From NCBI RefSeq assembly GCF_988243305.1, contig NZ_OZ547136.1: a stretch of 64,000 nt of DNA; one strand, given 5' to 3'. Under the pieces are notes generated by a model, which was given only the letters and a program-made list of their open reading frames with translations, had not been told where the DNA came from and did no database searches. Each line of letters opens with the position of its first letter. Position 1 is the stretch's first letter. This document shows, one piece after another, positions 6,460-45,285 of this stretch. The position numbers and the translations under genes are program-made.

Positions 6460-8300
<1,841 letters not shown>

Positions 8301-8530
8301 ATCCTTTTCAGCCGCGTAATGGTTTGTTTGCAAAGCGGATGCCAGTTTTTAAAAAGTGAATGTTATTAATATGTTAATGTTAAGTTGTCTAAAATATCTG
8401 GAAAAAAGTGGACTAAACGGTCAAAACAGTTGCACATAAAACATGCATCCGTGCGCGATGAAAGTGCAGAAGGTCGAGGCCGGGCAGGGGTTTTGCTATC
8501 CTGTTGCCAATCTACAAGAGGGGAGAGCGC

Positions 8531-9169
8531 ATGACGCAAGGCGCAGTGAAAACAACGGGTAAACGTTCGCGCGCAGTGAGCGCGAAGAAAAAAGCGATTC
8601 TTAGCGCAGCACTGGACACTTTTTCACAATTCGGTTTTCACGGCACAAGGCTGGAGCAGATCGCAGAGTTGGCAGGCGTTTCAAAAACCAATTTGCTGTA
8701 TTACTTCCCGTCAAAAGAGGCGCTGTATATAGCCGTACTGCGGCAGATTCTCGATATCTGGCTGGCACCGTTAAAAGCGTTTCGTGAAGATTTCGCCCCG
8801 CTGGCGGCGATCAAAGAGTACATCCGTCTGAAGCTGGAAGTCTCACGCGATTATCCGCAGGCTTCACGTCTGTTTTGTATGGAGATGCTGGCAGGCGCAC
8901 CGCTGTTAATGGATGAACTGACGGGTGATTTGAAAGCATTAATTGATGAGAAATCGGCGCTGATTGCCGGTTGGGTCAAAAGCGGCAAACTCGCGCCGAT
9001 TGATCCGCAGCATTTGATTTTTATGATTTGGGCTTCCACTCAACATTACGCCGATTTCGCCCCTCAGGTGGAGGCGGTGACAGGCGCGACGTTGCGCGAT
9101 GAGGTATTTTTCAATCAAACGGTTGAAAACGTGCAGCGGATTATTATTGAGGGGATTCGACCACGTTAA
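8531..9169 (+). CDS. rutR: TetR-family repressor RutR
   Basis: ORF 8504..9169 with TetR-type N-terminal HTH, divergent from the rut operon; start trimmed to MTQGAVK. Confidence 0.85.
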   Translation: MTQGAVKTTGKRSRAVSAKKKAILSAALDTFSQFGFHGTRLEQIAELAGVSKTNLLYYFPSKEALYIAVLRQILDIWLAPLKAFREDFAPLAAIKEYIRLKLEVSRDYPQASRLFCMEMLAGAPLLMDELTGDLKALIDEKSALIAGWVKSGKLAPIDPQHLIFMIWASTQHYADFAPQVEAVTGATLRDEVFFNQTVENVQRIIIEGIRPR

Positions 9170-9208
9170 AGATGCCGGAGGAGGTTGTAACATCCTCCGG
9201 CTTCCTGC

Positions 9209-12200
9209 TTAACCGATCGTCATTAAACTGGCGTTACCGCCAGCGGCAGCGGTATTCACACTCAGCGAACGCTCGATATACAGCCGTTCCAGCAGGATAT
9301 TGCTTTCGCCACGGGCAAAACCCTGCACCGAAACAATTGCGCCATCCCGCGCGGCAACTGCTTCACACAATGCGCGAAGCTGATCCGAATCACCGTGGAA
9401 GATCACCGCATCAAACGGTTGAGCGGTTATATTTTCCGCTTTCGCCAGTTGAATACGTTCGCTGACTGCCGATGGCAATGCCTTCACTAACTGACGATGC
9501 AGCGCGTCATCCGGCCACAGCACCTGGCTGCCCACCGCCAGCACGGCGGCGAGCTGAGTCAGCGCATCCTGCTCATCATCCGCAATACACAACACGCGCT
9601 CGCGCGGCAGCAGCGTCCAGGTGTTGCGTTCACCCGTCGGCCCTGGCAGCAATCGTTGTGTTCCTGCCTGCGCCAGCTCGCCATATTGCGTACATAACGC
9701 CTGCAATTCTGGACGGTTTGCCGCCCATTCCCGCAGTGCATTTAGCGGCTGAGTCAATGCGGCTTTCAACTGCGCATCGACCGGATACTCTGCATCCTGA
9801 CGCGCGAGCGTCACTGCCAGTGCACTTTCCGGGCGATTCGCCAGCAGACGGTAGAGATAGAGCGGACCGCCTGCTTTCGGCCCGGTGCCGGACAACCCTT
9901 CGCCGCCGAATGGCTGCACCCCGACCACTGCGCCCACCATATTACGGTTAACGTACAGGTTACCGACATGGGCCGAGCCAGTGACCTGGGCGATGGTTTC
10001 ATCAATGCGCGTATGGACGCCAAGCGTCAGACCATAACCGGAAGCGTTAATTTGCTCGATCAGCTCCGGCAGCTGGTTACGGTTATAACGCACCACATGC
10101 AGCACCGGACCAAAGACCTCTTTTTGCAATTCGGCAAAGTCATCCAGTTCAATCAGCGTCGGGGCGACAAAGGTGCCGCTTTGCCATTCACGGGCATCTT
10201 CACTGTTTTCCCGCACTGCCTGGAACACCGGACGGCCTTTACTACGCATAGTCTGAATATGACGCTCAATATTGGCTTTCGCTTCGCTATCAATCACCGG
10301 ACCGATATCGGTGGTCAGGCGACCAGGATTACCCATCCGGCATTCGGCCATTGCGCCGCGCAGCATTTTCAACGTGTGGTCGGCAATCTCATCTTGCAGG
10401 CACAGCACGCGCAGTGCCGAACAACGCTGGCCCGCACTGTCGAACGCTGAGGCCAGCACATCTATTACGACTTGTTCGGTCAGGGCGGAGGAGTCGACAA
10501 TCATCGCGTTCATGCCGCCGGTTTCCGCGATGAGCGGAATAGGGCGACCCTGAGCGTCCAGGCGGCTGGCGATATTGCGTTGCAGTAACGTAGCGACTTC
10601 GGTTGAACCGGTAAACATCACCCCGCGCACGCGATCATCACCCGTCAGTTGCGCGCCCACGGTTTCCCCCTGACCTGGCAGCAATTGCACCACGCCTGGT
10701 GGTACACCCGCTTCCAGCAAAATTGCGATCCCTTGCGCGGCAATCAGCGGCGTTTGTTCTGCCGGTTTTGCCAGCACGCTGTTACCTGCCGCCAGTGCGG
10801 CGGCGATCTGCCCGGTGAAAATAGCCAGCGGGAAGTTCCACGGACTGATACACACCACAGGCCCTAATGGACGGTGGGTTTCGTTAGCGAAATCATCCCG
10901 CACCTGTCCGGCGTAGTAGTGGAGAAAATCGACCGCTTCGCGCACTTCGGCAATGGCGTTACTGAAGGTTTTTCCGGCCTCACGCACCAGAATACCAATC
11001 AGTTGCTGCATCTGGCTTTCCATCAGCACGGCAGCGCGATGCAAAATCGCCGCGCGTTCAGCCGGAGGCGTGGCAAACCAGATTGGCGCGTTATTAACCG
11101 CACTTTCCAGCGCCAGTTCTACTTCACGCGGCGTGGCTTCACGCACATAGCCCACAATATCTTTCGGTTCCGCAGGGTTAATAACGGGCGACATCTCACC
11201 AGCCGTGACCGGTTGTTCCAGCATTGGCAAGGCCTGCCATTTTTGCAGTGCACTATTGAGCAGGGCAGAAGAGAGCGAGGCCAGACGGTGTTCGTTAGCG
11301 AGATCCAGCCCTGCCGAGTTGTCGCGCCCGTGACCGTAAAGATCGCGCGGCAGGGGAATTTTCGGATGCGGTAATCCAGTTTGCCCTTCCTGTTGCGCCA
11401 GTTTTTCTACAGCAGTGACCGGATCGGCGACCAGTTCATCCAGTGGCAAAGAGGTGTCGGCAATACGGTTAACAAACGAGGTGTTAGCACCGTTTTCCAG
11501 CAGGCGGCGCACCAGATACGCCAGCAGCGTTTCATGTGTGCCAACCGGGGCATAAATACGACACGGACGGTTAAGTTTGCCGTCGGCAACTTTCCCGGTG
11601 ACCTGCTCATACAGTGGCTCGCCCATACCATGCAGGCACTGGAACTCGTACTGACCCGGATAGTAGTTTTGACCCGCCAGTTGATAAATTGCCGCCAGCG
11701 TATGGGCGTTGTGCGTCGCGAACTGCGGGTAGATTAAATTCGGCACCGCCAGCAGCTTTTTCGCACAGGCGAGATATGAAACGTCGGTATACACCTTGCG
11801 GGTATAAACCGGATAACCTTCAAGGCCGTCCATCTGTGCACGCTTGATTTCACTATCCCAGTACGCGCCTTTCACCAGGCGAATCATCAGACGGCGACGG
11901 CTGCGGGTGGCGAGATCAATCAGGTAATCAATCACCAACGGACAGCGTTTTTGATAAGCCTGAATAACAAAACCGATGCCGTTCCAGCCTGCCAGTTCCG
12001 GCTCGAAACAGAGTTTTTCCAGCAGATCGAGGGAGATCTCCAGACGATCGGCCTCTTCGGCATCGATGTTAATACCAATATCGTACTGACGCGCCAGCAG
12101 GGTGAGTGATTTCAGACGCGGGTAAAGCTCTTCCATTACCCGATCATACTGGGCGCGGCTGTAACGCGGATGCAGCGCCGACAGCTTGATTGAAATGCCC

Positions 12201-13593: not shown

Positions 13594-15102
<1,509 letters not shown>

Positions 15103-20453: not shown

Positions 20454-20482
20454 GCCCGGGCGAACCGGGCTTTGTTTTATTT
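20454..20482 (+). terminator. Putative rho-independent terminator of phoH
   Basis: gcccggg-cgaa-cccgggc hairpin followed by tttgttttattt. Confidence 0.55.
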
Positions 20483-20997
20483 CATTAACAGCAAAGACTT
20501 TCACTTCAGGTTAACGTTCTGGGGGGCGACTTTGAGCGTGTTGATAAGCTGAAATGAATTCTGGTTTAGATACTTTTACCAGGCATTTTTCGTCATAGCA
20601 CGCGACCAATGTAATGCCGCCAGCGCGGAGAGTTTTTTGCCTATCTTTTTCCAGCCATTCAACCTGTACAGGAGGTCTGGTGCCAATTTTGCGTATGAGG
20701 TTTAATCAACAATGGGCCAAAATTTGACTGACTGATTAACACCGAATATATTCTCCTGATTTTATTTTTTAGGGATAATATTAAAAATATAAGGTTAATC
20801 TTAATTAAATTTTTGGCTAATATTGTGTGTTGTTATTTTTTGTGGACGGCAAGCCGCAATGGCAAAATAGGTATGGTTGTAATAATCAAAACATGATACT
20901 AACTATATATAGATCGTTGAATTGTTGGCATGTAACTCGCTACAGCGAGTAGCGTTAGTAATGAAATATAATCAACATGGATAGGTGAAGATTAATT

Positions 20998-21684
20998 ATG
21001 AGCTTTATGGTTTTTGTAACTTGTTTGACAATTGCATTTGTCGCCGGTTTTGCTGTTGCCAGAAAATTGACACTCCGAAAAGTTGCCTCATCGGTAATCA
21101 TCACTAGATCGCAACCAGTCCCTTCCTCTGCAACTTCCCCTGCTGCTAAGGCGTCGACAAGGAGCTATACACCGCAGAAAACCTATCGTGACTCTCGTTG
21201 GCAAGAACGAGATGAGTTGTTCCAGGGAATGGTTGCCGAAGGTATTTTATTGGAAGGAAAAGAGTGGTTAATTACGCGTTGTGAAAAAATTTATTTTGAT
21301 AATCTGGAGAAATGGTTTGGACATTCTTGTCATATCCATTGCCAGGTCTCTCTGGGGCGCTTGATCAACTTTCCAGAACAACCCGAGTTTAGCGAAGAAG
21401 AAAGAAAGCGTTTCTTTGCAATTTATAATGGAATGGCAATGGATTATGTTCTGGTTTCAAAGAAGAACAATAAAATAGTCTGTGTTATTGAGCTGGATGA
21501 GCCGAGTCATGAAAGGGCAGATCGCATTATTCGTGACCGTTGGTTGAATACGATTATGACTATTGCACGGGTGCCTTTTGTACGAGCTTCTGTCACTAAA
21601 TTGGATGAAATCCCTCCGGTCTGGGATACCCGTGACAAAATTCGCCCATTAGCCGCGGCGACAAAGGGTGAACCGTTGCATTAA
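20998..21684 (+). CDS. Membrane-anchored DUF2726-like protein
   Basis: 228-aa ORF with N-terminal TM helix and a C-terminal region that I read as DUF2726-like (NFPEQPEF ... VIELDEPSHE); AT-rich promoter region upstream. Confidence 0.55.
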   Translation: MSFMVFVTCLTIAFVAGFAVARKLTLRKVASSVIITRSQPVPSSATSPAAKASTRSYTPQKTYRDSRWQERDELFQGMVAEGILLEGKEWLITRCEKIYFDNLEKWFGHSCHIHCQVSLGRLINFPEQPEFSEEERKRFFAIYNGMAMDYVLVSKKNNKIVCVIELDEPSHERADRIIRDRWLNTIMTIARVPFVRASVTKLDEIPPVWDTRDKIRPLAAATKGEPLH

Positions 21685-21691
21685 CTAAGTA

Positions 21692-21969
21692 CCCCGGTCA
21701 GGGCTTCTCATCTCCCCCGGTGTGTGCAATATACGAAAAAAAAGCCCGTACCTTCGTACGAGCTCTTCTTTAAAGATGGCGGTGAGGGGGGATTGACTCG
21801 CTTCGCTCGCCCTGCGGGCAGCCCGCTCACTGCGTTCACGGTCTGTCCAACTGGCTGTCGCCAGTTGTCGAACCCCGGTCGGGGCTTCTCATCCCCCTGT
21901 GTGTGCAATATACGAAAAAAAAGCCCGTACCTTCGTACGAGCTCTTCTTTAAAGATGGCGGTGAGGGGG
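21692..21969. repeat. Two ~99-bp near-identical direct repeats separated by ~81 bp
   Basis: Copies at ~21692–21790 and ~21872–21969; on the minus strand each carries a stem-loop followed by T8. Confidence 0.6.
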
Positions 21970-30902: not shown

Positions 30903-33900
30903 TTGGAAGTAGAAATGTGGGATGGTGGCTTACAAGAACAGGAAGTATTGGCTATCGAGAAAATAAAAGCTGCTTTTTCAGTCAACGTATCTAAGCCTGA
31001 CAAGCCTTTCCGTAGCGGTTCAATTAGTGAGCAGCTAAAAAGCTATGGTTTTATCGGCAATGAAATGTTCCCTTGGAAAGGTTATGCAGGTTTTCGATTT
31101 GTTGAGGCAAAAAAAGAGGGGGAATTCGATTTAGTTATTGTAACACACTGCAACGTGATCATTGTTGAACTGAAAGACTGGAACCATCAGCCTGTAACCG
31201 CACGCGGAGATACTTGGTTTAAAGGCGATAAGAACATGGGGCGCTCGCCAGTAAGCGTGACTCGTAGCAAAAAATTCATGCTGGACAAAAAACTCAAGCG
31301 TCTGGTAGACCGTTTTACGAACAAAGGCTATATCCCGATTGTTCATTTTTTTGTTGTGATGACCGGCAATGCAGATTTCAGCGCGCTGCCGGAGGAACAA
31401 CGGCGCCATACGATCTCGTTAAAAGATTTCCTGAAGTTTGCCGATCGCGGGAGCTTCAATAACTATTTCAAACCGCACCCAGCTACCAAGGTTCTTAACA
31501 AGGATTTCCATCTTTTCGATGATTTGTTCCTAGGGCCTCAGACGGCACCAAAAGCCTTGAGAGTTAATGGCTATGAAGCTAATGATATGATTTTCGAACA
31601 TCCTAAAAAGGTGTATCGAGAATATCTGGCAAAATCTGAGATATCAACGAACAGCGAAGCGCTACTCAGAGTATGGAATTTTAGAAATATAACGGGAACG
31701 AAAGCGAATACCCCGGAAGGACGAGCTCAGATTGTTTCACGTGAGCGCGAAGTGTTACAGCACATCAATCACCAGAATCGTGACCTGTATAACCACTGTC
31801 TCAGGTCTTTGACGAGTTTTCAGAAAGACGAGGTGACGGCCGAGTATAGCGAAGTCTACGAAGTTCCGCCGGGTCATGTCCGGTTTAATGAGTTTATCGG
31901 AAAATATGGTAAGAACTTTTCTGATATGGACCGCTTGAATGTGGTGAAACTGCTCATTGCAAAGTTTAGTGATCTCCATGAGATGAAAATTGCGCACAGG
32001 GATGTCGCCGATCACAGTCTGTGGATTTCACCTTCAAAAGAAGTTGCTCTTTCGAACTTTATTTCGGCTTACCACCAGCCAGCCGGAACGGTTGGCGATT
32101 ACCGTAAGCTTTTATCCGTAGGTGCAGTCCACGTAAAAGACATGCTTGATAAGGGCGAGCTTACGCCTTTTCAGCAAGATGTTCATACTCTGGGCCTTGT
32201 CGCCTGGCACTTATTTAGCGGTATGCGCATGTCGCCAAAGAGTCTGGAGAAAGTACAGGACAACATGCTAAACAGCCAGCACTGGTATTCATCTGTATTA
32301 CGGGATGCCGTTGCCGCAAAATTCACTTCTGCAACAGAATTCTTTGATGCCCTGAAACAAGCCGAACCTGCTGGCAAGGATATTCCAACATTTGATGATA
32401 CTGAGCTTGACCCTTACCGACATGCTATCAATCACGCTCGTCAATACCCGGAAGACGATGGCTTTCAGTTTCAGGTCGAAACAGTCGACAAAGAAGTCTA
32501 TATCTCGAAAGGAAGGCTCGTGAAGGCTTGGCTGAATGTTGGGGGACAGGGATACGATCCGTCAATTAATTTCCAGGTTCTGAAGTTTTTAAAGCAGGTT
32601 GAGCGGCTTTCTTCAGTTAAAACAACGTATCTACCTCAAATTCGTGAATTCGGTATCGCATCAAAATCATCAAGCCTATATATGGTCACGGATCAGGTAC
32701 AGGGAGAAACCTGGGATAAAATAGCGGTCCCCGATGATGAAAAAATCGACCTCATTGGTAAGTTTGTCGCCGCCGTTGAGCACTTACATGGTCTGGGTGT
32801 TTCTCACGGGGACATCCACCCTGGCAATGTGATATTTGAGACACAGAGCCGTTTGCTTTTTCTCATCGATATCCCCGATTTTTCACCGTCCGGTGACGAA
32901 CCTAAAAATCACAGTTACAGCCCTGAATACATTGATAATTGTACTTCTTTTGAACGTGACAACTATGCAGTGATGAAGATGTCCTGCGAGTTGCTAGGCA
33001 TGTCATGGGGGCTGGAATCAGACATTTATCCGACAATCGCGAATGCTATCCGAGCAGAGCTGGAAGATCCGGTTTTTGGGTTTAAGGATTTAGGCCGCTT
33101 TAAAAAAGCGATAGATAGTAATGACCTGGTGCCAGAACAAGACCTGATAGAGATTACTGCAGGAAATGCCGATGAAATAATCTCTATTCTGCCTGATAAC
33201 GGGCATCTGTATGTCAAAGTTAAGTCAAATCCTAAAGCGCCAGCTGAAGTAAATGTGACTTTCTCTGGGATTGGTGGCAGTTTTACTGCGGTGTTCAACA
33301 AAGATCAGAAGACGCTGGTTCATGGCTTCAGGCCACGGGCTCGCGTCACAATTCGTAAGCAAGATATTGATGAAAGCCAGTTCGAAATTGATACTGGCAT
33401 CAAGATTATTCCCGGCAGTCCGCAGGATCTGTCGGCGTTGACAGTATTGCTTAATGAAGAAGAATCTTTTGCGCGGGCAATCGAGTTGATTGCCGCAACT
33501 GAAGATGTTCAGGTACAAGAGCCACTTACGCTTCAGCTAAAAGATACCTTTGCAAGGCTTGATAAGCAGACGCTTGAACCTTCTTTAAGAGAAGTGCTGG
33601 AAATCCCAACAGTGAAACTGTGGCGCGCCATTCTGGATACTGAAACAGAATCTTATCCAAACATTGAAATCAGCGGTGAAGTGGTCCCGGTTGCAGATGC
33701 TCATGGAGAGCTTCTTCTCCCTTACTCTGCTGATGTTGATCCACTCGGTGCTTTCAGAAGTAGTGATGAAGTCGAAGCCTTACAGGTCGATCAGGAAGGT
33801 GTTGAGCGATTTATTGGTGAAGTGTCACTTAAGAAGTCAGAGCTCAAAGAGATTCGTCTTGTCAAAGTTAGTTCAGCAGCCTTCAAGCTGAAGGATTCTG

Positions 33901-35873
33901 ATATTGTCTTCTTCCGTACAAGGCCGACTCGTGCATCTTATCAGAAACGTAAACGCGCACTGGAACGTCTCCTAGATCGAGAAAGTGTGCTGCCTGACTT
34001 AATTGACTTGTTCGATCCATCCTGCAAACAGGCGGCTCAAAATTATGGTATCACTCTCAGCGATACCGATTTTGCCAGATACGACCGTGAAGATCAGCAC
34101 GGAAACAAGATCAGTCTGAATGAACAGCAAAGAAAGGCGTTTAACAAACTGGTCAATAATGGCCCTCTCTCCCTGCTTCAGGGGCCACCGGGGACCGGTA
34201 AAACCGAGTTCATCGCGGCCTTTGTTCACTACCTGATCGAGAAACAGAATACCAAACGCATTTTACTGGTCAGCCAGTCACACGAGGCTGTGAATACAGC
34301 GGCCGAGCGTATCAGAAAGCATTGTTCCCGGCTTGGTACAGAGTTGGACGTTGTCAGGTTCAGCAACCGAGAGGGAGCCGTTTCCCCTGGCTTAAAAGAT
34401 GTGTACTCACACGCAATCACAACAGAGAAGCGCGAACTCTTCAATGCTGAAATTAAGTACCGTGTTGAAGCATTGAGTGAAGCTATTGGTCTGGAGCCGG
34501 GATTTATTTCGGGTGTTGTTCTTGCAGAGCTCAATTTGTTCAGACAAATCGATCACCTTGAGAAATTGCTCTATCAGGTTAACAATTTAACGGATTCAAA
34601 TGAGAGCAATGAACTGAAAGATATTGCAGTCGAACTCGATTTTTCCATCCGCTCTAAGCTGAGTCAGGAGTATGGGATTAACTTGGACAATGGCGTGAAG
34701 GTCTCAGCAGCAAAAGACATTCTGATTTCCAAGCTATGTACAGAGTATGGTGTCAGACCTGATGAGGCAAGACGAGTAAAAGCATTAGCTAAAATATCCC
34801 GTGATATGCAGGATGCTATGTCGGGAGAGCGAGTGAACCTGGACGAGTTTTATTCGCGCTCCAGGCAGTTAGTGGCTGGCACATGCGTTGGTATTGGACA
34901 AGGGCACATTGGCATTCAGGAGAATATCTATGACTGGGTGATTATTGATGAGGCGGCGCGCTCGATTTCAAGTGAGCTGGCCATTGCAATGCAGTCAGCC
35001 CGGCGTGTCCTGTTGGTGGGTGACCACATGCAGCTTCCTCCATTGTACTCAGATGCCCACAAGGCGGCATTAGCGAGGAAGCTGGGTATCAATAACTCCC
35101 GCACTGAAATTGACGAGGTATTACGAAGTGACTTTGCCCGAGCCTTCAACTCTGCTTATGGTGCGCAGACGAGTGCAGCTTTGATGACCCAGTATCGTAT
35201 GGCTCCACCGATTGGTAATCTCGTATCGAAGACGTTTTATGACGGGAAGCTTCTGAATGGAGTACGGGCAATTCCGGATGTCTATCAGCAAGCTCCGGAA
35301 GCGTTACGTAGCGTTGTAACCTGGCTTGATACTGCTAATCAGGGCCACCGAGCACATCATCTTGAAGATCGCGGAACAAGCATTTACAACCGATGTGAAG
35401 CTGACGAGATTATTTCTGTTCTTAAACAGGTGTCAGAGAATGAAGAATTTGTCGCTAAGCTTTCAAAACTTGTTAGCAAAGATGAAGCCGCTATCGGCGT
35501 GATATGTATGTATGCCGAACAAAAGCGGTTACTCCGTCAGAAATTCAATCAGGAAATCTGGAGCGAGGGATTTAAGGACATTGTTAAAATTGACACTGTT
35601 GACAGTTATCAGGGAAAGGAAAATCGGATCATTATCCTGTCACTGACGCGTTCGGATAAGCAGCATAGCCCAGGTTTCTTACGCGTTCCAAACCGTATAA
35701 ATGTCGCGATGTCACGCGCAATGGATCGACTGTTGATTGTGGGTAATGCCGATATCTGGAAGGGAAACAATAAAGAATTGCCATTAGGCTACGTTGTAAG
35801 TTATATGGCTGAGCGAGGTCAGGAAGCTGGATACAGGTTCCTCTCTGCTCAGCAGGGAGGCAAAAAGAAATGA
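30903..35873 (+). CDS. Giant multidomain protein: NERD-like nuclease region, two protein-kinase-like regions, UPF1-like SF1 helicase (candidate defence effector)
   Basis: 1656-aa ORF; aggaga SD 6 nt before the TTG start (alternative ATG at 30915); FDLVIVTHCNVIIVELKDW; IAHRDVADHSLWI and VSHGDIHPGNVIF...LIDIPDF; helicase motifs GPPGTGKT, VIIDEAARS, LLVGDHMQLPP, VDSYQGKE, RINVAMSRA. Confidence 0.8.
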   Translation: MEVEMWDGGLQEQEVLAIEKIKAAFSVNVSKPDKPFRSGSISEQLKSYGFIGNEMFPWKGYAGFRFVEAKKEGEFDLVIVTHCNVIIVELKDWNHQPVTARGDTWFKGDKNMGRSPVSVTRSKKFMLDKKLKRLVDRFTNKGYIPIVHFFVVMTGNADFSALPEEQRRHTISLKDFLKFADRGSFNNYFKPHPATKVLNKDFHLFDDLFLGPQTAPKALRVNGYEANDMIFEHPKKVYREYLAKSEISTNSEALLRVWNFRNITGTKANTPEGRAQIVSREREVLQHINHQNRDLYNHCLRSLTSFQKDEVTAEYSEVYEVPPGHVRFNEFIGKYGKNFSDMDRLNVVKLLIAKFSDLHEMKIAHRDVADHSLWISPSKEVALSNFISAYHQPAGTVGDYRKLLSVGAVHVKDMLDKGELTPFQQDVHTLGLVAWHLFSGMRMSPKSLEKVQDNMLNSQHWYSSVLRDAVAAKFTSATEFFDALKQAEPAGKDIPTFDDTELDPYRHAINHARQYPEDDGFQFQVETVDKEVYISKGRLVKAWLNVGGQGYDPSINFQVLKFLKQVERLSSVKTTYLPQIREFGIASKSSSLYMVTDQVQGETWDKIAVPDDEKIDLIGKFVAAVEHLHGLGVSHGDIHPGNVIFETQSRLLFLIDIPDFSPSGDEPKNHSYSPEYIDNCTSFERDNYAVMKMSCELLGMSWGLESDIYPTIANAIRAELEDPVFGFKDLGRFKKAIDSNDLVPEQDLIEITAGNADEIISILPDNGHLYVKVKSNPKAPAEVNVTFSGIGGSFTAVFNKDQKTLVHGFRPRARVTIRKQDIDESQFEIDTGIKIIPGSPQDLSALTVLLNEEESFARAIELIAATEDVQVQEPLTLQLKDTFARLDKQTLEPSLREVLEIPTVKLWRAILDTETESYPNIEISGEVVPVADAHGELLLPYSADVDPLGAFRSSDEVEALQVDQEGVERFIGEVSLKKSELKEIRLVKVSSAAFKLKDSDIVFFRTRPTRASYQKRKRALERLLDRESVLPDLIDLFDPSCKQAAQNYGITLSDTDFARYDREDQHGNKISLNEQQRKAFNKLVNNGPLSLLQGPPGTGKTEFIAAFVHYLIEKQNTKRILLVSQSHEAVNTAAERIRKHCSRLGTELDVVRFSNREGAVSPGLKDVYSHAITTEKRELFNAEIKYRVEALSEAIGLEPGFISGVVLAELNLFRQIDHLEKLLYQVNNLTDSNESNELKDIAVELDFSIRSKLSQEYGINLDNGVKVSAAKDILISKLCTEYGVRPDEARRVKALAKISRDMQDAMSGERVNLDEFYSRSRQLVAGTCVGIGQGHIGIQENIYDWVIIDEAARSISSELAIAMQSARRVLLVGDHMQLPPLYSDAHKAALARKLGINNSRTEIDEVLRSDFARAFNSAYGAQTSAALMTQYRMAPPIGNLVSKTFYDGKLLNGVRAIPDVYQQAPEALRSVVTWLDTANQGHRAHHLEDRGTSIYNRCEADEIISVLKQVSENEEFVAKLSKLVSKDEAAIGVICMYAEQKRLLRQKFNQEIWSEGFKDIVKIDTVDSYQGKENRIIILSLTRSDKQHSPGFLRVPNRINVAMSRAMDRLLIVGNADIWKGNNKELPLGYVVSYMAERGQEAGYRFLSAQQGGKKK

Positions 35874-37306
35874 TATCTGATAACAAAGTTACCTATCATG
35901 AGGTTGACTTCCTGCTGCCAGCACAGAGGTTTAACATTCAGTTTTCCTATGTTTCCCAGAAGGGGCTGCCATTTATCCGGGAGTTTGTGCTGAGACTTGT
36001 TCATGTAGCTTCGATGAGCAAAGCACAAATAGCAACCTATTTCGGCCTGACCCACCGTGAGACAGAGGAGGCGATTTCCGATCTTGTGCAGCGTGGCGAA
36101 TTGACGCTCTCCTCAGACGGCAGACTGGCCTTAACAGACAAATCAAATGGCTATTTTTCAGAGGTTGGCGAGATACCGCATCTTTCAACTATTCAGGACA
36201 GTGGCTGTACCTTATCCTTTGATTTAGCCACATTTAGTTGCTTCAGCAACCAGGCTTTTCAGGACCACTGGAGGGGAGGGGTAACATTAAAGGTTGATGA
36301 CAACAACATTTCTCAAAGTGAGAAACTGGTTGAGAAGCACTTTCAATACCAGTTTAATCAAATCCTGGATAAAGGTTACCTGTCTCACCTGCAGGTTCAG
36401 GTCGGAAAAGAACAACCTTCTATCTATACCGTTAATTCTGTTAATAAGCTGCGGCAAATACCACTCCGTTTAACAACGGAATTTAAAATGGATAGCGATG
36501 GTAAGGCTGTCGAGCGTGAAGACTATGAACAGTTAAATAGTTCGGAATGTGTTCATGAGTTAATGGCTGTTGAGATAGCCAGGTTATCACGGCATAACAA
36601 TACCATGAGTATTTTTAAGGCCATGCAATCCATTAACGATGACCTTACGCTTAAGCTGTTTGACTCTAAAACGAATCGACTTAATCCGTTGTTTATCAAA
36701 GATATGCAAGCACTGGAAGAATACTCGTCCTCAGGCAGAACGACTTTTTTAGGTCCGGTTTATTCTAAAAACAACTGGGAAAAGCTGCAGAAAGCTCTGG
36801 CACCAGCGCTCAATCAGCGTATCAGAGATAAAACTGATTATGGAGGTAGCCCGTTCATCTGGGTGGCACCATCAGATCCCTACTGGTCAAAAAGCATTCG
36901 ATTTATCTCAAGCCTGAGCAATTTTCTTAGCAAGTCGGCTACGAAGGATAAGCAGCTGTATAAACCGGTGCTGTACGTACCTGTCCGGGATGCAGCTGAT
37001 GCTCGGGTTGCCAGACAGTGGAAGTATGAACTTGGGCAATTCCATGAGTACGCTAAAGGACTAGTTGAGGGGCTGTTAGATGGTAATGTTGAGATCCTTC
37101 ATCTTGAGGATGAGTTATCTGCCGTTATCTATCATATTTCTCAACCCGAAATATTGCCTGTAACGATGCCACTGGGCTTTATCACAACGAACAAAGAAAC
37201 GGTTAAGATTATTGGTACTCTGGTTACTGAATATATCAAAGGCACCACTGGTTTTGATAAGTTTCATGACTGTGGCGCAATTTCGGCAATGATTAAGAAA
37301 GGTTGA
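35870..37306 (+). CDS. Hypothetical 478-aa partner protein with possible N-terminal winged-helix region
   Basis: Start overlaps the upstream stop (ATGA); no PLD HxK(x)4D motif seen. Confidence 0.7.
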
Positions 37307-37461
37307 GCTGTTGGAACAGGAGGTATGGGGCATGTTTGCGTATTTTTATGGAAAGAAATAACCCAATGACGGCGTTACTCTCCAACTGGGTTGACGCGTG
37401 CTGCCTGTTAATGGCTCCGCTGAATGATGCCCTATACCGTTATGTGATGAACACCCGCCTG

Positions 37462-37720
37462 GGAACCATCCACGGCACGTCGGTCGGCGAACTGCTGGCG
37501 TGGATCAAAGAAGATGAAAACCCTCGCAAAGGCGAGATGGTGCTGATTATTGAAGGCCATAAAGCCCAGGATGACGAACTGCCCGCCGATGCGCTGCGTA
37601 CGCTGGCGCTGTTGTAGGCTGAGCTGCCGTTGAAGCAAGCGGCGGCGTTGGCGGCAGAAATCCACGGAGTGAAGAAGAATGCGTTGTATAAGTATGCGCT
37701 GGAACAGCAGGGGGAATAAG
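37462..37720 (+). pseudogene. 3'-terminal fragment of an rsmI-like gene with an in-frame stop
   Basis: ...[77 protein letters not shown] resembles the recalled RsmI C-terminus; upstream part of ORF 37303..37617 is unrelated. Confidence 0.55.
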
Positions 37721-38218
37721 CCCCTGCTGCCGGTTTTGCCGGGTGGCGCTTGCGCCTTACCCGGTCTGCTCATTGGGACAAGCGTTTAGTTAACGGGCAC
37801 CGCCTCAAACACCAGCGTTTCCAGCGGCTGCAACGTAATCACCGTCGCGTTTTTATACTCAACGGGCACGGTTTTATTGCTGCCGTATACCGCTTTCAGA
37901 CTAAACTGCGCCACGTCTCCTGTCGGTATTTCGAAATCCTTAGCCAAATCCAGATAGTAGGCCTGTGGCTTATCCGATGGGTTGCGCAAACCGAGAATGG
38001 CTTTGTCTTTGCTCCAGGATGCCCAGCCGTACACGGCAAGCGCCGTTGGGTCGCCGCCAATCCAGTGGGTATCAACCAGCACGCTGGCATTTTCCTTCGA
38101 CCATTTTGCAGCCTTCGCCAGCGTATCCCACTTCACCTTGTTCAGCATGGACGGGGTAATATACTGAACCGCCCCGGGAATCCTGGAGACTAAACTTCCT
38201 GAGAAAGAGGTAAACAGG

Positions 38219-38545
38219 ATGACTAAAAATACTCGTTTTTCCCCCGAAGTCCGTCAACGGGCAGTCCGTATGGTTCTGGAAAGTCAGAGCGAATATGACT
38301 CACAATGGGCGACAATTTGTTCCATTGCTCCAAAGATTGGCTGTACGCCGGAGACTCTGCGTGTCTGGGTTCGCCAGCATGAGCGGGATACCGGGGGCGG
38401 TGATGGAGGGCTCACCACCGCTGAACGTCAGCGTCTGAAAGAGCTGGAACGTGAAAATCGTGAACTGCGCCGCAGTAACGATATCCTTCGCCAGGCTTCC
38501 GCTTATTTTGCGAAGGCGGAGTTCGACCGCCTCTGGAAAAAATGA
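38219..38545 (+). CDS. IS3-family transposase OrfA (copy 1)
   Basis: 108-aa HTH/leucine-zipper OrfA ([19 protein letters not shown]...). Confidence 0.85.
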
Positions 38546-39432
38546 TGCCACTGCTGGATAAGCTGCGTGAGCAGTACGGGGTCGGACCGCTATGCAGCGA
38601 ACTGCATATTGCCCCGTCAACGTATTACCACTGTCAGCAACAGCGACATCATCCGGATAAACGCAGTGCCCGTGCGCAGCGCGATGACTGGCTGAAGAAA
38701 GAGATACAGCGCGTATACGATGAAAATCACAAGGTATACGGTGTGCGTAAAGTCTGGCGTCAGTTGTTACGGGAAGGTATCAGAGTGGCCAGATGCACTG
38801 TGGCACGTCTCATGGCGGTTATGGGACTTGCCGGTGTTCTCCGGGGTAAAAAGGTCCGTACGACCATCAGCCGGAAAGCCGTTGCCGCAGGCGACCGCGT
38901 AAACCGTCAGTTCGTGGCAGAACGACCTGACCAGCTGTGGGTGGCTGATTTTACTTACGTCAGCACATGGCGGGGCTTCGTCTATGTGGCGTTCATCATT
39001 GATGTGTTTGCCGGATACATCGTGGGGTGGCGGGTCTCATCGTCCATGGAAACGACATTCGTGCTGGATGCACTGGAGCAGGCGTTATGGGCCCGTCGAC
39101 CGTCCGGCACGGTCCATCACAGTGATAAAGGTTCTCAGTATGTATCGCTGGCCTACACACAGCGGCTTAAGGAAGCCGGATTACTGGCATCAACAGGAAG
39201 TACAGGCGACTCGTATGACAACGCGATGGCGGAGAGCATCAATGGTCTTTACAAAGCGGAGGTAATACACCGTAAGAGCTGGAAAAACCGTGCAGAAGTG
39301 GAACTGGCCACACTCACGTGGGTGGACTGGTATAACAATCGACGATTGCTGGAAAGGCTGGGCCATACTCCTCCGGCAGAAGCAGAAAAAGCTTATTATG
39401 CTTCCATCGGAAACGATGATCTGGCAGCCTGA
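38542..39432 (+). CDS. IS3-family transposase OrfB, DDE integrase core (copy 1)
   Basis: 296-aa ORF overlapping orfA, typical programmed-frameshift arrangement. Confidence 0.85.
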
Positions 39433-41001
39433 GTTCACAGATAAAACACTCTCCAGGAAACCCGGGGCGGTTCATACAGCTCCTGCAGCTGGGTGCCGGT
39501 CGCGAAGTAGCTCCAGACCTGATCGGCAAAGTCGCTGTCCGTTTGCACCTTCTCTAACCCGTAATAGGCATTCTCGGCGCTGACTATCCCGTGGTACATC
39601 AGCGAGTTCAGCGGGAACAGAGGGCCTTTACGGACAATGGAGCGGTACGTCTCGGCATCGCGGTAGGTCATCCACTGCTGCACCGGCGTACCGGAACCAT
39701 ACAGGTTGATGTCATCTCCCTGACGCCAGATAGAATCAGCGTAGAACAGCCAGGACGGGCTGGCGTCGGTGCCGGTGGTCAGGTTGATAAACAGATTCGG
39801 GGTTGCGCTGCGCATATTGTGCAGCAGGGCGATTGATGCATCGAAATCTGAGGCGAACGAGCTGCCTTTGATATGCGAACTGGCGTTACCCATCCCGTCG
39901 AGTTTAAACGAGGTGATGTGCTCGTTTTTGATAAGCTTGATGATCCGCTCATTGAAGTTTTTAAAGTAGTTCGCTCCCGACAGCGCCAGTTTGCCGTCCA
40001 CGGTTTCGAACCCATACTCTTTTGCATGCGAAACGCGAACGTCGCGCGGTTTGTTGTAGCCACCCCACGGTGAAAGCCATAGCCCAACGGAGCTGTGCAG
40101 GCTGTCGGCTTTCTCCCGTACTTTGCTAAAACCGTTTCTGAATGCCGTGCCAAATAGCCAGCGTCCGGTCAGATCGTCCCAGCCATCATCCAGCAGGAAG
40201 GCGTCCAGCGCCACGCCGCGGCCCGTAATGAACTCCTTGTTCCATTCGTCCATACGCCCCAGCACATCCTGTTCAGTGTAGGGAGTGAAAAAGCCGATAT
40301 CCATCCAGCTGTTGTAGTGCAGATAAGGCTTGTATGGGCGTGGACGTACGTCATTAATAAACTGGTTCACGCTGCGGCGCAGCTGGCTGGTTTCCGGGAA
40401 AGTGCCGAACCAGGTAGTAAAGCTGACCGGCGCCTCTGGCTGAATCGGCGTTTTCAGCTCTACGTTGAGATTGGTGGTGGCTTCATAGGCGTAGGTATTC
40501 ACGATCGGTTTATCCGGCAGGATAAAGAACGAGTCCGCAACGATCGGAGAGCTATTGATTGCGCCGTCTACGTAAGGGGCCTGAGACTGTTTTTGGGTCG
40601 GGAAGAAGGTGATTTTAGCGACGTCGCGCGGCTGCCCCACGGCGGCAATGGTGTAGCCGATGTTGGCGTATTTTCCCTTCACCAGGTTCAGCTTCACCGT
40701 GACGTTAAAATCCGGGTGCGTAAAGTCGATGACAATCGCGTTATCCTGCTTTTCGACGTGCTTGATTTTGAAATCCGCGGTGTGGATTTTACTCTCATCC
40801 GGCAGCGTCAGAAAGAACAACTCCTGCGGCGTGAGCGGATGGTTAGCCTTGTTGTCCTTCACCACGACCGTTGAGTTTGTATCATCAAACAAGAGGGCAA
40901 TATTGTCGTTATTGAGCGCGTAGTTTGCTGCCGCTGCACCATGAGAAACGCAGAGAGCCAGCAGTGAGAGAGTGAGCACTTTCTTCATCGGGGTAAGATC
41001 C

Positions 41002-42180
41002 TTATTTGTCATTTTTCAGCATTCGGTTAATGGACTGCTCCAGCCAGTAGCGCTGGGTGCCAAAATTAATCCGCAGGTAGTTTTCGCCGTTTTGTACATA
41101 GTGGCTGCCGTCTTCTATGACCACGCCTGCCTGCCGTGCGAAATGTTGGGTTAGCTGCGTTGCGCTACGCTCATCCGCGCTTACGTCTATCCACGCCAGA
41201 TACGACGATTCCGGGTTCATCATCTTCCACGCCGGGAAGTGGGTCTGGAGGGCATCCGCCAGATACCGGGCGTTGCCTTGCAGATAACCGTTCAGCGCGT
41301 CGAGCCAGGGCAGACCGTGTTGATAGGCCAGAATGATTCCCCATACCCCGAACAAATTGGGCGAGGTAATGGAGTTCTTCTCGAGCTGCTGGCGGAAGCG
41401 CTGGCGCAGCGAGTCGTCTGGAATCATGGAGTAGGAGGTTTTCAGCCCGCCCAAATTGAACGCTTTGTTGGGCGATGTGAGCACGATCAGGTTGTCCTGG
41501 GCGGCACAGCCAGAGGTGAGACAACTGGCGAATTTGCCATCCAGAATGTGTTCAGCGTGAACCTCATCGACCACCAGAATCGTGCCGTAGCGTTGACAGA
41601 GATCGGACACCTGGCGTATTTCTTTCTCGCGCCAGATCCTGCCGGACGGGTTATGTGGCGAGCAGAAGAACCACAGCGTTGGACGGTGGGTTTTGAGCTG
41701 TTCTTCTATCAGATTAAAATCAAGCTGATAGCGGTTTTCCTCCACGCGCAGCGGGTTAGCCAGTACCTGCACGCCCTGGCGCTGTGCCGCCATCGCAAAA
41801 GGATCGTAGACCGGCGTGTTCATCATCACGCTGTCACCCGGTTTGCAGAATGCCTGAACCGTGTAGTGCAGCGTGGATACGGTGCCGTAGGTCAACGTGA
41901 TCCACGACTTTTCCACCTCAACCTGATGACGTTTGCGCTGGAAGGCAATGACCGCGTCGTAGAATTCGTCAAAGCACCAGGTATAACCAAAGGTGCCGTG
42001 CTCCACGATGCGCCGGAAACCGTCAATCACCGCAGGTGGTGAGGTGAAATCCATATCGGCTATCCATAGGGGGATAAAGGACTCCGGGACGTCACCGAAA
42101 CGCGAGCAAACAAAGGTATGGTCCCATTTACGGCACTTATCATTTTGACGCTCAATGATTTTGTCGAAATCAAACATCAC
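41002..42180 (-). CDS. MalY/PatB-like PLP-dependent C-S lyase
   Basis: 392-aa ORF with aminotransferase class I/II signature (SPHNPSG ... SPNKAFN). Confidence 0.7.
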   Translation of the reverse strand: MMFDFDKIIERQNDKCRKWDHTFVCSRFGDVPESFIPLWIADMDFTSPPAVIDGFRRIVEHGTFGYTWCFDEFYDAVIAFQRKRHQVEVEKSWITLTYGTVSTLHYTVQAFCKPGDSVMMNTPVYDPFAMAAQRQGVQVLANPLRVEENRYQLDFNLIEEQLKTHRPTLWFFCSPHNPSGRIWREKEIRQVSDLCQRYGTILVVDEVHAEHILDGKFASCLTSGCAAQDNLIVLTSPNKAFNLGGLKTSYSMIPDDSLRQRFRQQLEKNSITSPNLFGVWGIILAYQHGLPWLDALNGYLQGNARYLADALQTHFPAWKMMNPESSYLAWIDVSADERSATQLTQHFARQAGVVIEDGSHYVQNGENYLRINFGTQRYWLEQSINRMLKNDK

Positions 42181-42188
42181 TCCTCCTG

Positions 42189-43796
42189 TTAAATTAAGGC
42201 TTCAATGCCGGTTTTGACGCTCTGTACCTGCGGTCCGATGATCACCTGCACGCTATGCGCATCAAGCATCACCACTGACAACGCGCCTGCCGCTTTCAGC
42301 GCCTGCTGATCGATAAGGCCCATATCTTTCACCACCAGACGCAAGCGGGTAATACAGTTATCAAGCGACTCAATGTTCTCTTTACCTCCGAGCGCACGTA
42401 GGATAAGCTCGTGATCGTATTTTGATTTTCCGCGCGCGCGGGTGTTCGCCTCGACGGCTTGCTGTGCCCCCTGAACATCCACCTCGCGGCCCGGCGTTTT
42501 GATGTTGTGTTTGAGGATGTACCAGCGGAAGACAAAGAAGTAGATGGCAAACCAGGCAATACCAACCGGGAACAGCAGATACCATTTGGTCGACATTCCC
42601 TGCATCACGCCGAAAATCAGCAGATCCAGAATGCCGCCGTCGGTATTGCCGATGGTCACTCCCAGCAGGGCCATTACCATCAGCGCCAGGCCAGACATGA
42701 CGATATGGAAGGCGTAAAGCGCGGGGGCGATAAACAGGAACAGGAACTCAATCGGCTCTGAAATACCGGTGACGACGGAAACCAGCACGCCGGAAAGCAG
42801 CAACCCCTTAATGACCGGCCGATTTTCCGGACGCGCGGTGCGGTAGATGGCGTAAGCCACGGCGGGTAAACCGAAGATAAAGGTCGGCATAAACCCTTGT
42901 GACAGAAACGCGGTAACGTGCGGGCTAAACGGCAGGCCGGCTTTGAGCTCGGCGTAGAAGATATTCAGCGCCCCGGCGACCTCATGGCCATTTACCATTT
43001 CAATGCCGCCTGCTGGGGTAAAACGCACCATCGCCAGCAGGATGTGGTGCAGACCAAAAGGTTTAAGCAGCAGCACGCCTACGCCGTAGAGGAAGGGGCC
43101 GAAAACGCTGGTGCTCTGGATAATATGCCCAATGCCCGCGATGCCCAGCGCGACGTATTCCCACAGCATGGGAATGAACAGACCCACCAGCGACAGGGTG
43201 AGCGCGGTAATAATCGGCACGAAACGAATGCCGCTAAAGAAGGCGAAGGCGTCATGCAGAACCGTGTCCTGAAAACGGTCATGCAGAAAATAGGTGATAA
43301 CCCCAACCACAATGCCACCTAATACCCCCATCTCCAGGGTTTGAATGCCCAGCACGATCGATTGTCCTACCTGTTTCATGGTGGCGGGGTCGGCAAGCTG
43401 GTGGGTAGCCGTCAGGTAATAATTAATGCTCATGTTCATCAGCATGTAGCCAACGAACCCGGCAAAGGCAGCGACCGCTTTGTTGCGCTTGGCAAGCCCC
43501 ATGGGGATCGCCATGGCAAACATCAGCGGCAGATAGGTAAAAGCAAAGCCACCGACCATAGCGATAAAGCCAAAGGTCAACTGGGTAAATTCGCCGCCCA
43601 GAAAGGGAAAACTAGTAATGGTGGAAGGGCTGGTGACTGAACTACCGATACCCAGCAGCAATCCCATAAAGGCAAGAAGCGAAACCGGGAACATAAAGGT
43701 TTTCCCCAGACTTTGTAAAAACTCCCATAATTTTGATTTAAAAGATTTTTTTTGTGTCATATAGGGCTCCTCGAATTTTAGGATAATGGAAGGCAC
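42189..43796 (-). CDS. PTS glucose/maltose-family EIICB component
   Basis: 535-aa polytopic ORF with C-terminal EIIB motif NCITRLR. Confidence 0.8.
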   Translation of the reverse strand: MPSIILKFEEPYMTQKKSFKSKLWEFLQSLGKTFMFPVSLLAFMGLLLGIGSSVTSPSTITSFPFLGGEFTQLTFGFIAMVGGFAFTYLPLMFAMAIPMGLAKRNKAVAAFAGFVGYMLMNMSINYYLTATHQLADPATMKQVGQSIVLGIQTLEMGVLGGIVVGVITYFLHDRFQDTVLHDAFAFFSGIRFVPIITALTLSLVGLFIPMLWEYVALGIAGIGHIIQSTSVFGPFLYGVGVLLLKPFGLHHILLAMVRFTPAGGIEMVNGHEVAGALNIFYAELKAGLPFSPHVTAFLSQGFMPTFIFGLPAVAYAIYRTARPENRPVIKGLLLSGVLVSVVTGISEPIEFLFLFIAPALYAFHIVMSGLALMVMALLGVTIGNTDGGILDLLIFGVMQGMSTKWYLLFPVGIAWFAIYFFVFRWYILKHNIKTPGREVDVQGAQQAVEANTRARGKSKYDHELILRALGGKENIESLDNCITRLRLVVKDMGLIDQQALKAAGALSVVMLDAHSVQVIIGPQVQSVKTGIEALI

Positions 43797-43873
43797 TACC
43801 CGGTTTAAGGACGCGCCTTCATATTTGTGGGACTTATAATTATTTTGAAATATTGAGGTAATACGCTGTTGGA

Positions 43874-44278
43874 TCAGGCCTCCGCCGGTAGCCGTAATCG
43901 ATTTGCCGAGCCGCAGACGGCGATTTTGCTTCTGACCACCTCTTTCATGGCGTCCATGCCAACCCGCATGTAAAAGCGCGGATCGTTGCTCTGCTGATTT
44001 TCAGCAAACCAAGCTTTGATAGCGTCAGAGAAGGCGATCTTCAACTCGGTTGCAACGTTGACTTTGCAGACGCCTGGCCCAATGGTGCGACGAACATACT
44101 CATCCGGCACATCGCTCGCCCCATGCAGCACAAAGCGGGCAAAACAAACGGCATAAATTCCATTTGTTTTGCCCGCTTTGTGCTGCCTCACCATTTCTGT
44201 CAGATGTTTCACTTTCCTCTCCAGTTCAGATTGCTGCGATATTAATCTTTCGTTTTGTTTCAGTTGATACTGCGTCAT
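43874..44278 (-). pseudogene. Fragment resembling the C-terminus of a class II tagatose/fructose-bisphosphate aldolase
   Basis: C-terminal portion ([11 protein letters not shown] ... [13 protein letters not shown] ...) is aldolase-like; N-terminal portion unrelated. Confidence 0.45.
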
Positions 44279-44460
44279 GGTGAGATAAAAATAAAACGAA
44301 AGATAATAGTTTTCTGATCTGATTCACAAAAGAAACATAATGAAAGTCAGTGAAACGAGAGTAGCTTGCGCCAATGGGCAAGGTGGGCTTGCATTTGCTT
44401 AATAGAAAGGCGTTAATAGGCAAAACGAAATGAAACGAAAGTTTTACGAAAGGACTTACT

Positions 44461-45285
44461 ATGAGTAATACCGACGCTTCAGGTGAGAAGCGAGTGACAG
44501 GCACCAGCGAGCGACGAGAACAGATCATTCAGCGTCTGCGACAGCAAGGGAGTGTGCAGGTTAACGATCTGTCGGCATTGTATGGCGTATCTACTGTGAC
44601 GATCCGCAACGATCTGGCGTTTCTGGAAAAGCAGGGAATCGCTGTGCGTGCCTATGGTGGCGCGTTGATCTGCGATAGCACGACGCCGTCAGTCGAGCCA
44701 TCAGTGGAAGACAAAAGCGCACTGAACACCGCGATGAAACGCAGCGTTGCGAAAGCTGCCGTTGAGTTGATTCAGCCAGGTCATCGGGTGCTCCTCGATT
44801 CCGGGACCACCACTTTTGAGATTGCTCGTCTGATGCGCAAGCACACTGACGTAATTGCGATGACCAACGGTATGAACGTGGCTAATGCGTTGCTGGAAGC
44901 GGAAGGCGTTGAGCTGCTGATGACCGGCGGGCATTTGCGCCGTCAGTCGCAATCTTTTTACGGCGATCAGGCTGAGCAATCGCTGCAAAATTACCACTTC
45001 GATATGCTGTTTCTTGGTGTAGATGCGATCGATCTGGAGCGCGGCGTCAGCACGCATAATGAAGATGAAGCCCGTTTAAACCGCCGGATGTGCGAAGTTG
45101 CGGAACGGATCATCGTGGTCACCGATTCCAGTAAGTTCAATCGTTCCAGTTTACATAAGATCATTGATACTCAACGTATCGACATGATCATTGTTGATGA
45201 AGGCATTCCTGCGGATAGTCTGGAAGGCTTGCGAAAGGCTGGGGTTGAAGTGATTCTGGTCGGGGAGCTCGCGTCTTCGCTGTGA
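44461..45285 (+). CDS. agaR: DeoR-family transcriptional repressor, AgaR-like
   Basis: 274-aa ORF with N-terminal DeoR HTH and sugar-phosphate-binding C-terminal domain; identity to AgaR is from memory. Confidence 0.7.

Follow-up and report, generated by a model that had tools for sequence, protein, structure and literature searches.

Introduction

Among the closest described relatives of the locus reported here are malX and malY of Escherichia coli K-12, members of the MalI regulon that lie between malI and add; they encode an EIIA-less, glucose-family EIICB of the phosphotransferase system (PTS) and, within about 10 nt of it, a PatB/MalY-family lyase. MalX/MalY-type pairs were described in 1991, and their physiological role has been unclear ever since. 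Two further systems bear on the locus. In the E. coli agaS-kbaY-agaBCDI operon, transcribed from P_S, the distal genes encode AgaBCD, a mannose-family PTS for galactosamine (GalN), and AgaI. YacT is the Yersinia homologue of the Aeromonas cytotonic enterotoxin Ast, to which it is 54% identical, and a yacT mutant of Y. frederiksenii was found to be attenuated in Galleria (PMC6246891).

We analyzed a stretch of 64,000 nt (the window) from contig NZ_OZ547136.1 of RefSeq assembly GCF_988243305.1. Within it, the interval 41002-43796 holds two adjacent minus-strand open reading frames (ORFs), a PTS EIICB gene and then a gene for a pyridoxal phosphate (PLP)-dependent lyase, which an earlier reading made from the sequence alone had likened to a malX-malY-like paralogous pair. 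We find that the pair makes up the first two genes of a three-gene operon whose last gene belongs to the Ast/YacT family. By synteny, this operon is native to Enterobacter-like bacteria, where it makes up the distal part of the aga operon, for N-acetylgalactosamine (GalNAc) and GalN; judged by its flanks, the copy in the window was taken up into an integrative island of E. coli along with fragments of kbaY and rsmI. On balance we lean towards regarding the locus as an AgaR-controlled accessory module for an amino-sugar-related substrate, that is, as a captured aga-operon tail that has partly decayed in this strain. The pair is annotated generically in databases, and it was already known that the segment belongs to an island found in extraintestinal pathogenic E. 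coli (ExPEC). What is new here is the aga-operon origin, the case against repression of MalT, the wider link between the lyase and PTS genes, and the re-reading of an 'enterotoxin' as a predicted glycosidase.

The EIICB and lyase genes and their native neighborhood

The EIICB gene (42189-43760, minus strand) is intact and encodes a 523-aa protein of the glucose/maltose (MalX) family, in which a Pfam scan placed PTS_EIIC at residues 31-369 (E 1.9e-65) and PTS_EIIB at residues 465-496 (E 1.6e-15) and found no EIIA domain. Both the NCITRLR phospho-cysteine motif and the GxSEPxEF motif are present, aligned with those of MalX. Translation probably starts at ATG 43760, which is preceded by a GAGGAG ribosome-binding site and gives the 523 aa of the RefSeq protein, and not at GTG 43796; the gene is 100% identical in DNA to that of WP_000192271 in strain 190693. 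Starting 11 nt past the EIICB stop codon, the intact lyase gene (41002-42177, minus strand, ATG at 42177) encodes a 391-aa PatB/MalY-family PLP-dependent C-S beta-lyase with a class I/II aminotransferase fold (Pfam Aminotran_1_2, E 1.9e-38). The lysine that forms the Schiff base with PLP, aligned with K233 of MalY, is kept in all 14 aligned sequences, and the catalytic columns neighboring it are also conserved. The third gene begins 13 nt past the lyase stop codon. For all three genes dN/dS is between 0.03 and 0.07 in comparison with Enterobacter and Yokenella, indicating strong purifying selection between genera. The two ORFs and their Pfam and NCBIfam assignments thus bear out the earlier claim of an EIICB and a MalY/PatB-like PLP enzyme adjacent on one strand.

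A scan with the lyase protein, using one genome per species, yielded 39 loci, whose synteny was mapped by tblastn. The EIICB-lyase pair is present in 24 gamma-proteobacterial loci. Among the 23 of these with enough upstream sequence, kbaY lies directly upstream of the pair in 21, and these span three families (Enterobacter, Citrobacter, Kluyvera, Yokenella, two further Enterobacteriaceae, Escherichia sp., Morganella and Aeromonas). Of the 24 loci, 10 have the glycosidase-like third gene behind the pair. Klebsiella aerogenes and Yersinia lack the pair there, and the third gene stands directly after kbaY; GalNAc (aga) operons end with this gene in Klebsiella, Yersinia, Enterobacter and Aeromonas. 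The intact order is seen in Enterobacter ludwigii, where kbaZ-agaVWEF-agaA-agaS-kbaY is followed by the EIICB, lyase and glycosidase-like genes and then by convergent rsmI and, after it, lpoA. With kbaY upstream and rsmI downstream, the pair therefore occupies the slot that agaBCDI fills in E. coli. Like agaBCDI, the module comes after kbaY and before rsmI, runs in the same direction and has no AgaR operator of its own; its products, unlike those of agaBCDI, are an EIICB of the glucose family, a PLP lyase and a periplasmic glycosidase-like protein.

Occupation of this slot also speaks for a different explanation, in which the EIICB is an alternative transporter of galactosamine or free hexosamine that replaces AgaBCD, and the lyase is uncoupled from it, serving sulfur or amino-acid housekeeping or moonlighting as a regulator. 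Consistent with replacement, agaBCD is missing from the 10 kb around the pair in most of the aga loci that have it. However, the pair and agaBCD-like genes stand side by side in Escherichia sp. MOD1-EC7003 and Enterobacteriaceae bacterium 89, and lyase orthologues of at least 50% identity are found with a PTS gene in 36 of 37 loci from two phyla, a pattern that an uncoupled lyase would not readily produce. We therefore consider replacement with an uncoupled lyase unlikely, although it is one of the two alternatives that survive best.

Candidate operators and a stem-loop in the leader region

Divergent from the module lies agaR (44461-45285, plus strand), an intact gene for a DeoR-type repressor with HTH_DeoR and DeoRC domains, annotated as agaR in RefSeq and 98.6% identical in DNA to agaR of K-12. 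We take WRMMTTTCRTTTYRTTTYNYTTKK to be the AgaR operator consensus of Ray and Larson 2004. It has three matches in the 64 kb, against 0.13 expected, and all three fall in the control region between agaR and kbaZ' (44244-44444), at 44244-44267, 44326-44349 and 44421-44444. In the native loci, matches occur only in the regions upstream of agaR-kbaZ (P_R/P_Z) and of agaS (P_S), and none was found in the kbaY-EIICB spacer. The lack of an operator before the EIICB gene in these loci implies that it is reached by read-through from agaS-kbaY (P_S), as are agaBCDI. In the window, the arrangement of genes suggests that transcription would instead proceed from P_Z through a short fusion ORF (see below). 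The stand-alone pair of Hafnia has one AgaR core match with two mismatches per locus, and similar matches occur elsewhere in the same loci. Promoter and terminator scans gave counts near the shuffled expectation.

The spacer between 'kbaY and the EIICB gene contains a stem-loop (43789-43820, minus strand) that has no U-tail and whose stem is imperfect in the window copy. RNAalifold applied to 13 distinct enterobacterial spacers predicts 10 pairs, 9 of them with compensatory changes. A comparable GC-rich hairpin lies 3' of kbaY in K-12, K. aerogenes and Yersinia, whatever the next gene. A post-kbaY stem-loop was seen in every aga operon we examined, for example at 7150-7195 of locus L007 and at 14030-14060 of locus L056. 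An Rfam scan of the leader and spacer region returned chance-level matches only, with no family for the stem-loop. The element may serve to stabilize the mRNA or to limit read-through.

The island copy and its decay

In the window, the three genes lie in an integrase-bearing island downstream of rut-putAP-efeUOB-phoH. Upstream of the EIICB gene is an in-frame kbaZ'-'kbaY fusion ORF of 112 aa (43874-44212, minus strand), a deletion scar from which agaVWEF-agaA-agaS have been removed; its N-terminus is KbaZ-like, and its C-terminus matches positions 201-277 of the F_bP_aldolase profile. A mosaic junction lies between 44131 and 44143. The sequence from 44143 to 45267, comprising agaR, the control region and the first kbaZ codons, is 98.6% identical to K-12, whereas the stretch from 39474 to 44131, which begins in the glycosidase-like gene and extends to 'kbaY, shares 86% identity with Enterobacter soli but no more than 77% with kbaY of K-12. 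Beside the intact agaR, on the kbaZ'-'kbaY side of the operon, is a garD pseudogene. The far end of the captured chromosomal segment is marked by an rsmI pseudogene remnant (37458-37716, plus strand; 85% identical to K-12 rsmI), for which the annotation of strains 190693 and E686 gives a truncated 16S rRNA methyltransferase. The GC content is 54% in the module and in the flanking core genes alike, so that the module is not set apart by its composition. Among 5426 complete E. coli genomes, 312 have the full pair with an identity of at least 99% (megablast), and the exact EIICB protein is found on at least 1000 contigs and the exact lyase protein on 387.

A second, differently decayed copy is recognizable in CFT073. 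Segment c3405-c3410 of PAI-metV, a pathogenicity island (PAI) of that strain, was listed as 'PTS system, maltose/glucose specific' in a comparative study (PMC2831201). It shares garD', agaR', kbaZ', the lyase gene, the 'enterotoxin' gene and rsmI' with the window at 93-97% DNA identity. CFT073 keeps kbaZ', agaS', the 5' part of kbaY (kbaY') and the last 81 nt of the EIICB gene, followed by intact lyase and 'enterotoxin' genes; the segment with the remaining genes is at 8046-9082 of locus L004. The CFT073 island is at another site than that of the window, and different aga fragments have been kept. As the aga remnants differ, the two copies appear to have decayed independently from an ancestor with a complete aga operon plus module, and c3405-10 can be read as a decayed copy of the same module. 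Lloyd and colleagues are said to have found in 2009 that deletion of c3405-10 reduced the bladder fitness of CFT073.

In the window, the glycosidase gene is disrupted by an insertion sequence (IS) and the aga catabolic genes of the island are deleted; therefore only the EIICB-lyase pair can still work. These losses, along with the garD and rsmI pseudogenes and the deletion of the EIICB gene in a sister lineage, speak for the view that in this strain the module no longer functions and is the decaying remnant of chromosomal sequence that was once captured. Yet neither the EIICB nor the lyase ORF is truncated, both have 100% identical copies in many genomes, the promoter/operator region is intact, and the bladder-fitness effect reported for c3405-10 points the same way. 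A functionless relic thus appears to us an improbable description, about on a par with replacement of AgaBCD.

The lyase in PTS operons and a proposed mode of action

The closest relatives of the lyase outside the gamma-proteobacteria are clostridial proteins of 50-56% identity, far closer to it than MalY. These orthologues belong to PTS operons in 12 of 13 loci, 10 of which also have an M24 Xaa-Pro peptidase gene. The clostridial operon encodes a PRD regulator, EIIA, EIIC, in most cases the M24 Xaa-Pro peptidase, then the lyase and, in some cases, an EIICB resembling MalX. In Clostridioides, Romboutsia and Paraclostridium (loci L033-L045 and L049; for example L037, 4762-11179) the set consists of an EIIA-bearing PRD regulator, EIIA, a 420-aa EIIC, the M24 peptidase and the lyase. 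The orthologues in the PTS-M24 peptidase-lyase operons of C. difficile, Romboutsia and Paraclostridium are 50-54% identical to the window lyase and, as in the window, embedded among PTS genes. The operons differ from the window in having a PRD regulator, an EIIA-2, the 420-aa EIIC and the Xaa-Pro peptidase, and in having no aga genes. The presence of a peptidase and a beta-lyase within a sugar PTS operon suggests a sugar-peptide substrate, and nothing argues more strongly for a substrate common to lyase and transporter than the recurrence of this lyase subfamily among PTS genes in two phyla.

These observations provide the basis for a proposed working of the module. AgaR would repress P_Z, and a signal derived from GalNAc or GalN would relieve this repression. 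The EIICB, which by analogy with EIIA-less MalX may be charged by EIIA-Glc (Crr), would import and phosphorylate an amino-sugar-related substrate, and the PLP lyase would act enzymatically on the amino-acid part of the substrate or of its product, and not as a repressor of MalT. Where the third gene is intact, the predicted periplasmic glycosidase would release the sugar, alpha-linked GalNAc or GalN, from host glycans. The products would then feed into the Aga pathway, whose genes lie at another place in the genome.

A bolder version, which we offer as a long shot, is that PTS-linked PatB-type lyases, among them this pair and perhaps MalXY, serve a previously undescribed way of catabolizing glyco-amino acids. 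A sugar carried on the side chain of Ser, Thr or Cys, such as GalNAc-alpha-O-Ser/Thr (Tn antigen) remaining after the degradation of mucin, would be taken up and phosphorylated at position 6 by the EIICB, and the lyase would beta-eliminate the amino-acid part to give GalNAc-6-phosphate, pyruvate and ammonia. In clostridia, the Xaa-Pro peptidase would first trim glycosylated Ser/Thr-Pro dipeptides, and Ast/YacT proteins would be periplasmic alpha-GalNAc/GalN-ases. More generally, the locus offers a MalX/MalY paralogue tied to a defined GalNAc/GalN pathway. That tie, together with a periplasmic alpha-galactosaminidase-like enzyme, narrows the search for a substrate to a few compounds that can be purchased.

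Several points weigh against an AgaR-controlled module for an amino-sugar-related substrate. PatB-type enzymes act on alpha-amino acids, and the known Aga pathway has no intermediate that bears an amino acid. To our knowledge, no substrate is known for any member of the EIICB-lyase pair, and the MalX-like NCBIfam score leaves glucose or maltose as a possible substrate of the EIICB. The clostridial orthologues are not linked to aga genes, and the two exceptions to the kbaY linkage, both from Hafnia, have the pair alone, away from aga genes. Some 188 B2 genomes, including CFT073 and also UM146, keep the lyase and the glycosidase and have lost the EIICB (in megablast with the pair they match over the lyase portion alone), which argues against strict interdependence. 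Finally, the hairpin in the 'kbaY-EIICB spacer could restrict the read-through on which the pair would depend.

Comparison with malXY and with the ExPEC malX marker

Family classification and comparison with the K-12 proteins agree in placing the pair beside malXY and apart from it. The EIICB scores 722.7 bits against NCBIfam TIGR02004, 'PTS-IIBC-malX' (cut-off 632.2), and 711.9 bits against PRK10110 (cut-off 665), thus passing both, and is 53% identical to MalX of K-12. The lyase passes TIGR04350, 'PatB family C-S lyase', with 363.8 bits (cut-off 340) and is 30% identical to K-12 MalY. Its top solved relative is Bacillus subtilis PatB (6qp3, E 1.3e-79); its other near solved relatives are cysteine-S-conjugate beta-lyases, and E. 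coli MalY comes only twelfth.

The residues of MalY at the interface with MalT are A84, C181, D182, E185, S218, N219, A221 and R222 (PMC10427625). The window lyase has E, E, K, R, G, C, A and Q, respectively, in these eight columns and so keeps only one of the eight, A221. Two of the changes, D182 to K and E185 to R, are charge reversals, and both columns vary freely among the orthologues. With a single contact residue kept, a role of the lyase as a repressor of MalT is unsupported.

The pair is likewise not the canonical malXY by position: along with the 53% and 30% identities, its locus after phoH, and not between malI and add, rules this out. No malI-like regulator is nearby; in its place is agaR, which together with kbaZ'/'kbaY flanks the pair at one end, the Ast/YacT gene being its neighbor at the opposite end. 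The window further differs from malX-malY in its island locus, in its third, secreted glycosidase-like gene, and in a native context that is the aga operon. The sequence-only reading, which had proposed an accessory sugar module made up of a malX-malY-like paralogous pair, is supported by these identities and by the island location; it had missed that the disrupted secreted protein belongs to the same operon as its third gene, the aga-operon home and the lack of the MalT-contact residues.

A functional duplicate of malXY, comprising a glucose/maltose EIICB and a MalT-repressing MalY-like protein with an incidental cystathionase activity, would account for the EIICB scores above both cut-offs, for the malX-malY gene order and for the shared PatB/MalY family of the lyase. 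It accords poorly with the low identities, the retention of A221 alone among the interface residues, the presence of agaR instead of a malI-like regulator and the aga linkage in 21 of 23 informative loci, and we find it very doubtful.

The EIICB gene shares its annotation name and its nature as an island-associated PTS gene with the ExPEC 'malX' marker detected by RPAi PCR. We rejected identity of the two. CFT073, which is listed in the literature as carrying the PAI of that marker, retains of the EIICB gene only the last 81 nt. The RPAi primers have no match in the window, and a literature search did not find the position of the RPAi malX marker in CFT073. For epidemiology, the island-borne 'malX' described here is thereby set apart from the ExPEC malX marker.

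The third gene encodes a predicted glycosidase and is interrupted in the window

In strain 190693, the third gene is intact (9087-10976 of locus L001) and encodes a 629-aa protein with a signal peptide. In the window it is split in two: a 5' part of about 504 codons (39475-40988, minus strand), collinear with the intact gene of strain 190693, and a 3' part of about 125 codons (37786-38164, minus strand), 100% collinear with L001 9087-9465. Between them lies a 1310-bp IS3-family insertion sequence (38165-39474, plus strand) with orfA at 38219-38545, orfB at 38542-39432 and rve/HTH_21 domains. Its 25-nt inverted repeats are 92% complementary, and a TAC target duplication is present on both sides. 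Strain 190693 has no IS at the site of the 38164/39475 junction. The IS-disrupted secreted protein that had been noticed next to the pair is thus confirmed, as the 629-aa product divided by this element.

Searched as a single sequence, the third protein matched nothing in Pfam, NCBIfam or PDB. Homologues of it are plentiful in Enterobacterales, Vibrionaceae and Aeromonas, and bear the names 'enterotoxin', 'enterotoxin YacT', 'alpha-galactosidase' and, from one source, 'predicted exported alpha-N-acetylgalactosaminidase'. It is 75-77% identical over 100% of its length to proteins named enterotoxin YacT (77% to those of Yersinia) and about 50% identical to Aeromonas homologues. An AlphaFold (AF2) model built from 31 homologues (pLDDT 87.5, pTM 0.87) consists of a beta-sandwich, a (beta/alpha)8 TIM barrel and a C-terminal beta-sandwich. 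The best PDB matches of this model in Foldseek are the blood-group-A alpha-galactosaminidase of Flavonifractor plautii, of glycoside hydrolase (GH) family GH36, and GH36 alpha-galactosidases (probability 1.0, E 1e-24 to 1e-22, TM up to 0.65), followed by GH97 and GH31. A profile search aligned an invariant LLDDGWD with the DDGW of alpha-galactosidases at a marginal E of 0.15-0.8; an invariant FKLDG and an invariant WRQGDD resemble, by eye only, the nucleophile and acid/base motifs of GH27/36. The modeled fold points to a predicted clan GH-D, GH36-like alpha-galactosidase or alpha-galactosaminidase.

Although the gene is a full-length homologue of those for Ast and YacT, the window copy is disrupted, and the modeled fold and the operon context favor a glycosidase over a classical toxin. 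If the model holds, the label 'enterotoxin' may be wrong, or glycosidase activity may underlie the toxicity, and we suggest that the products that thousands of enterobacterial genomes list as 'enterotoxin' belong to aga operons and are glycosidases. That the locus is primarily one for an Ast/YacT cytotonic enterotoxin, with the two upstream genes incidental, is the least probable of the alternatives: the names of the homologues and the attenuated yacT mutant (PMC6246891) favor it, but the predicted three-domain glycosidase fold with TIM-barrel motifs, the position of the gene at the end of GalNAc catabolic operons in four genera and its inactivation in the window do not.

The element in the glycosidase gene has counterparts in the window. 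A second insertion of about 1.3 kb, absent from strain 190693, lies at 58132-59443 and carries a transposase ORF of 296 aa, of the same length and with identical Pfam scores as that of the element in the glycosidase gene. Another IS3-family element lies beside the garD pseudogene (47060-48333). The host strain appears to be IS-rich.

Other genes in and near the island

Directly upstream of the module in the window, positions 30903-37306 encode a 1656-aa MkoA and a 478-aa MkoB (PADLOC, 2212 and 503 bits), a Mokosh-type anti-phage defence pair in the same island. At 20478-21855, between phoH and the island integrase, pgaABCD and dgcT of strain 190693 are absent and are replaced by about 1.4 kb with a DUF2726 gene. 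The same island also carries, at 49046-53423, a small sugar cluster of its own, with genes for a DeoR regulator, a ribokinase, a FucP-type permease and an aldose 1-epimerase, as annotated in the identical region of strain 190693.

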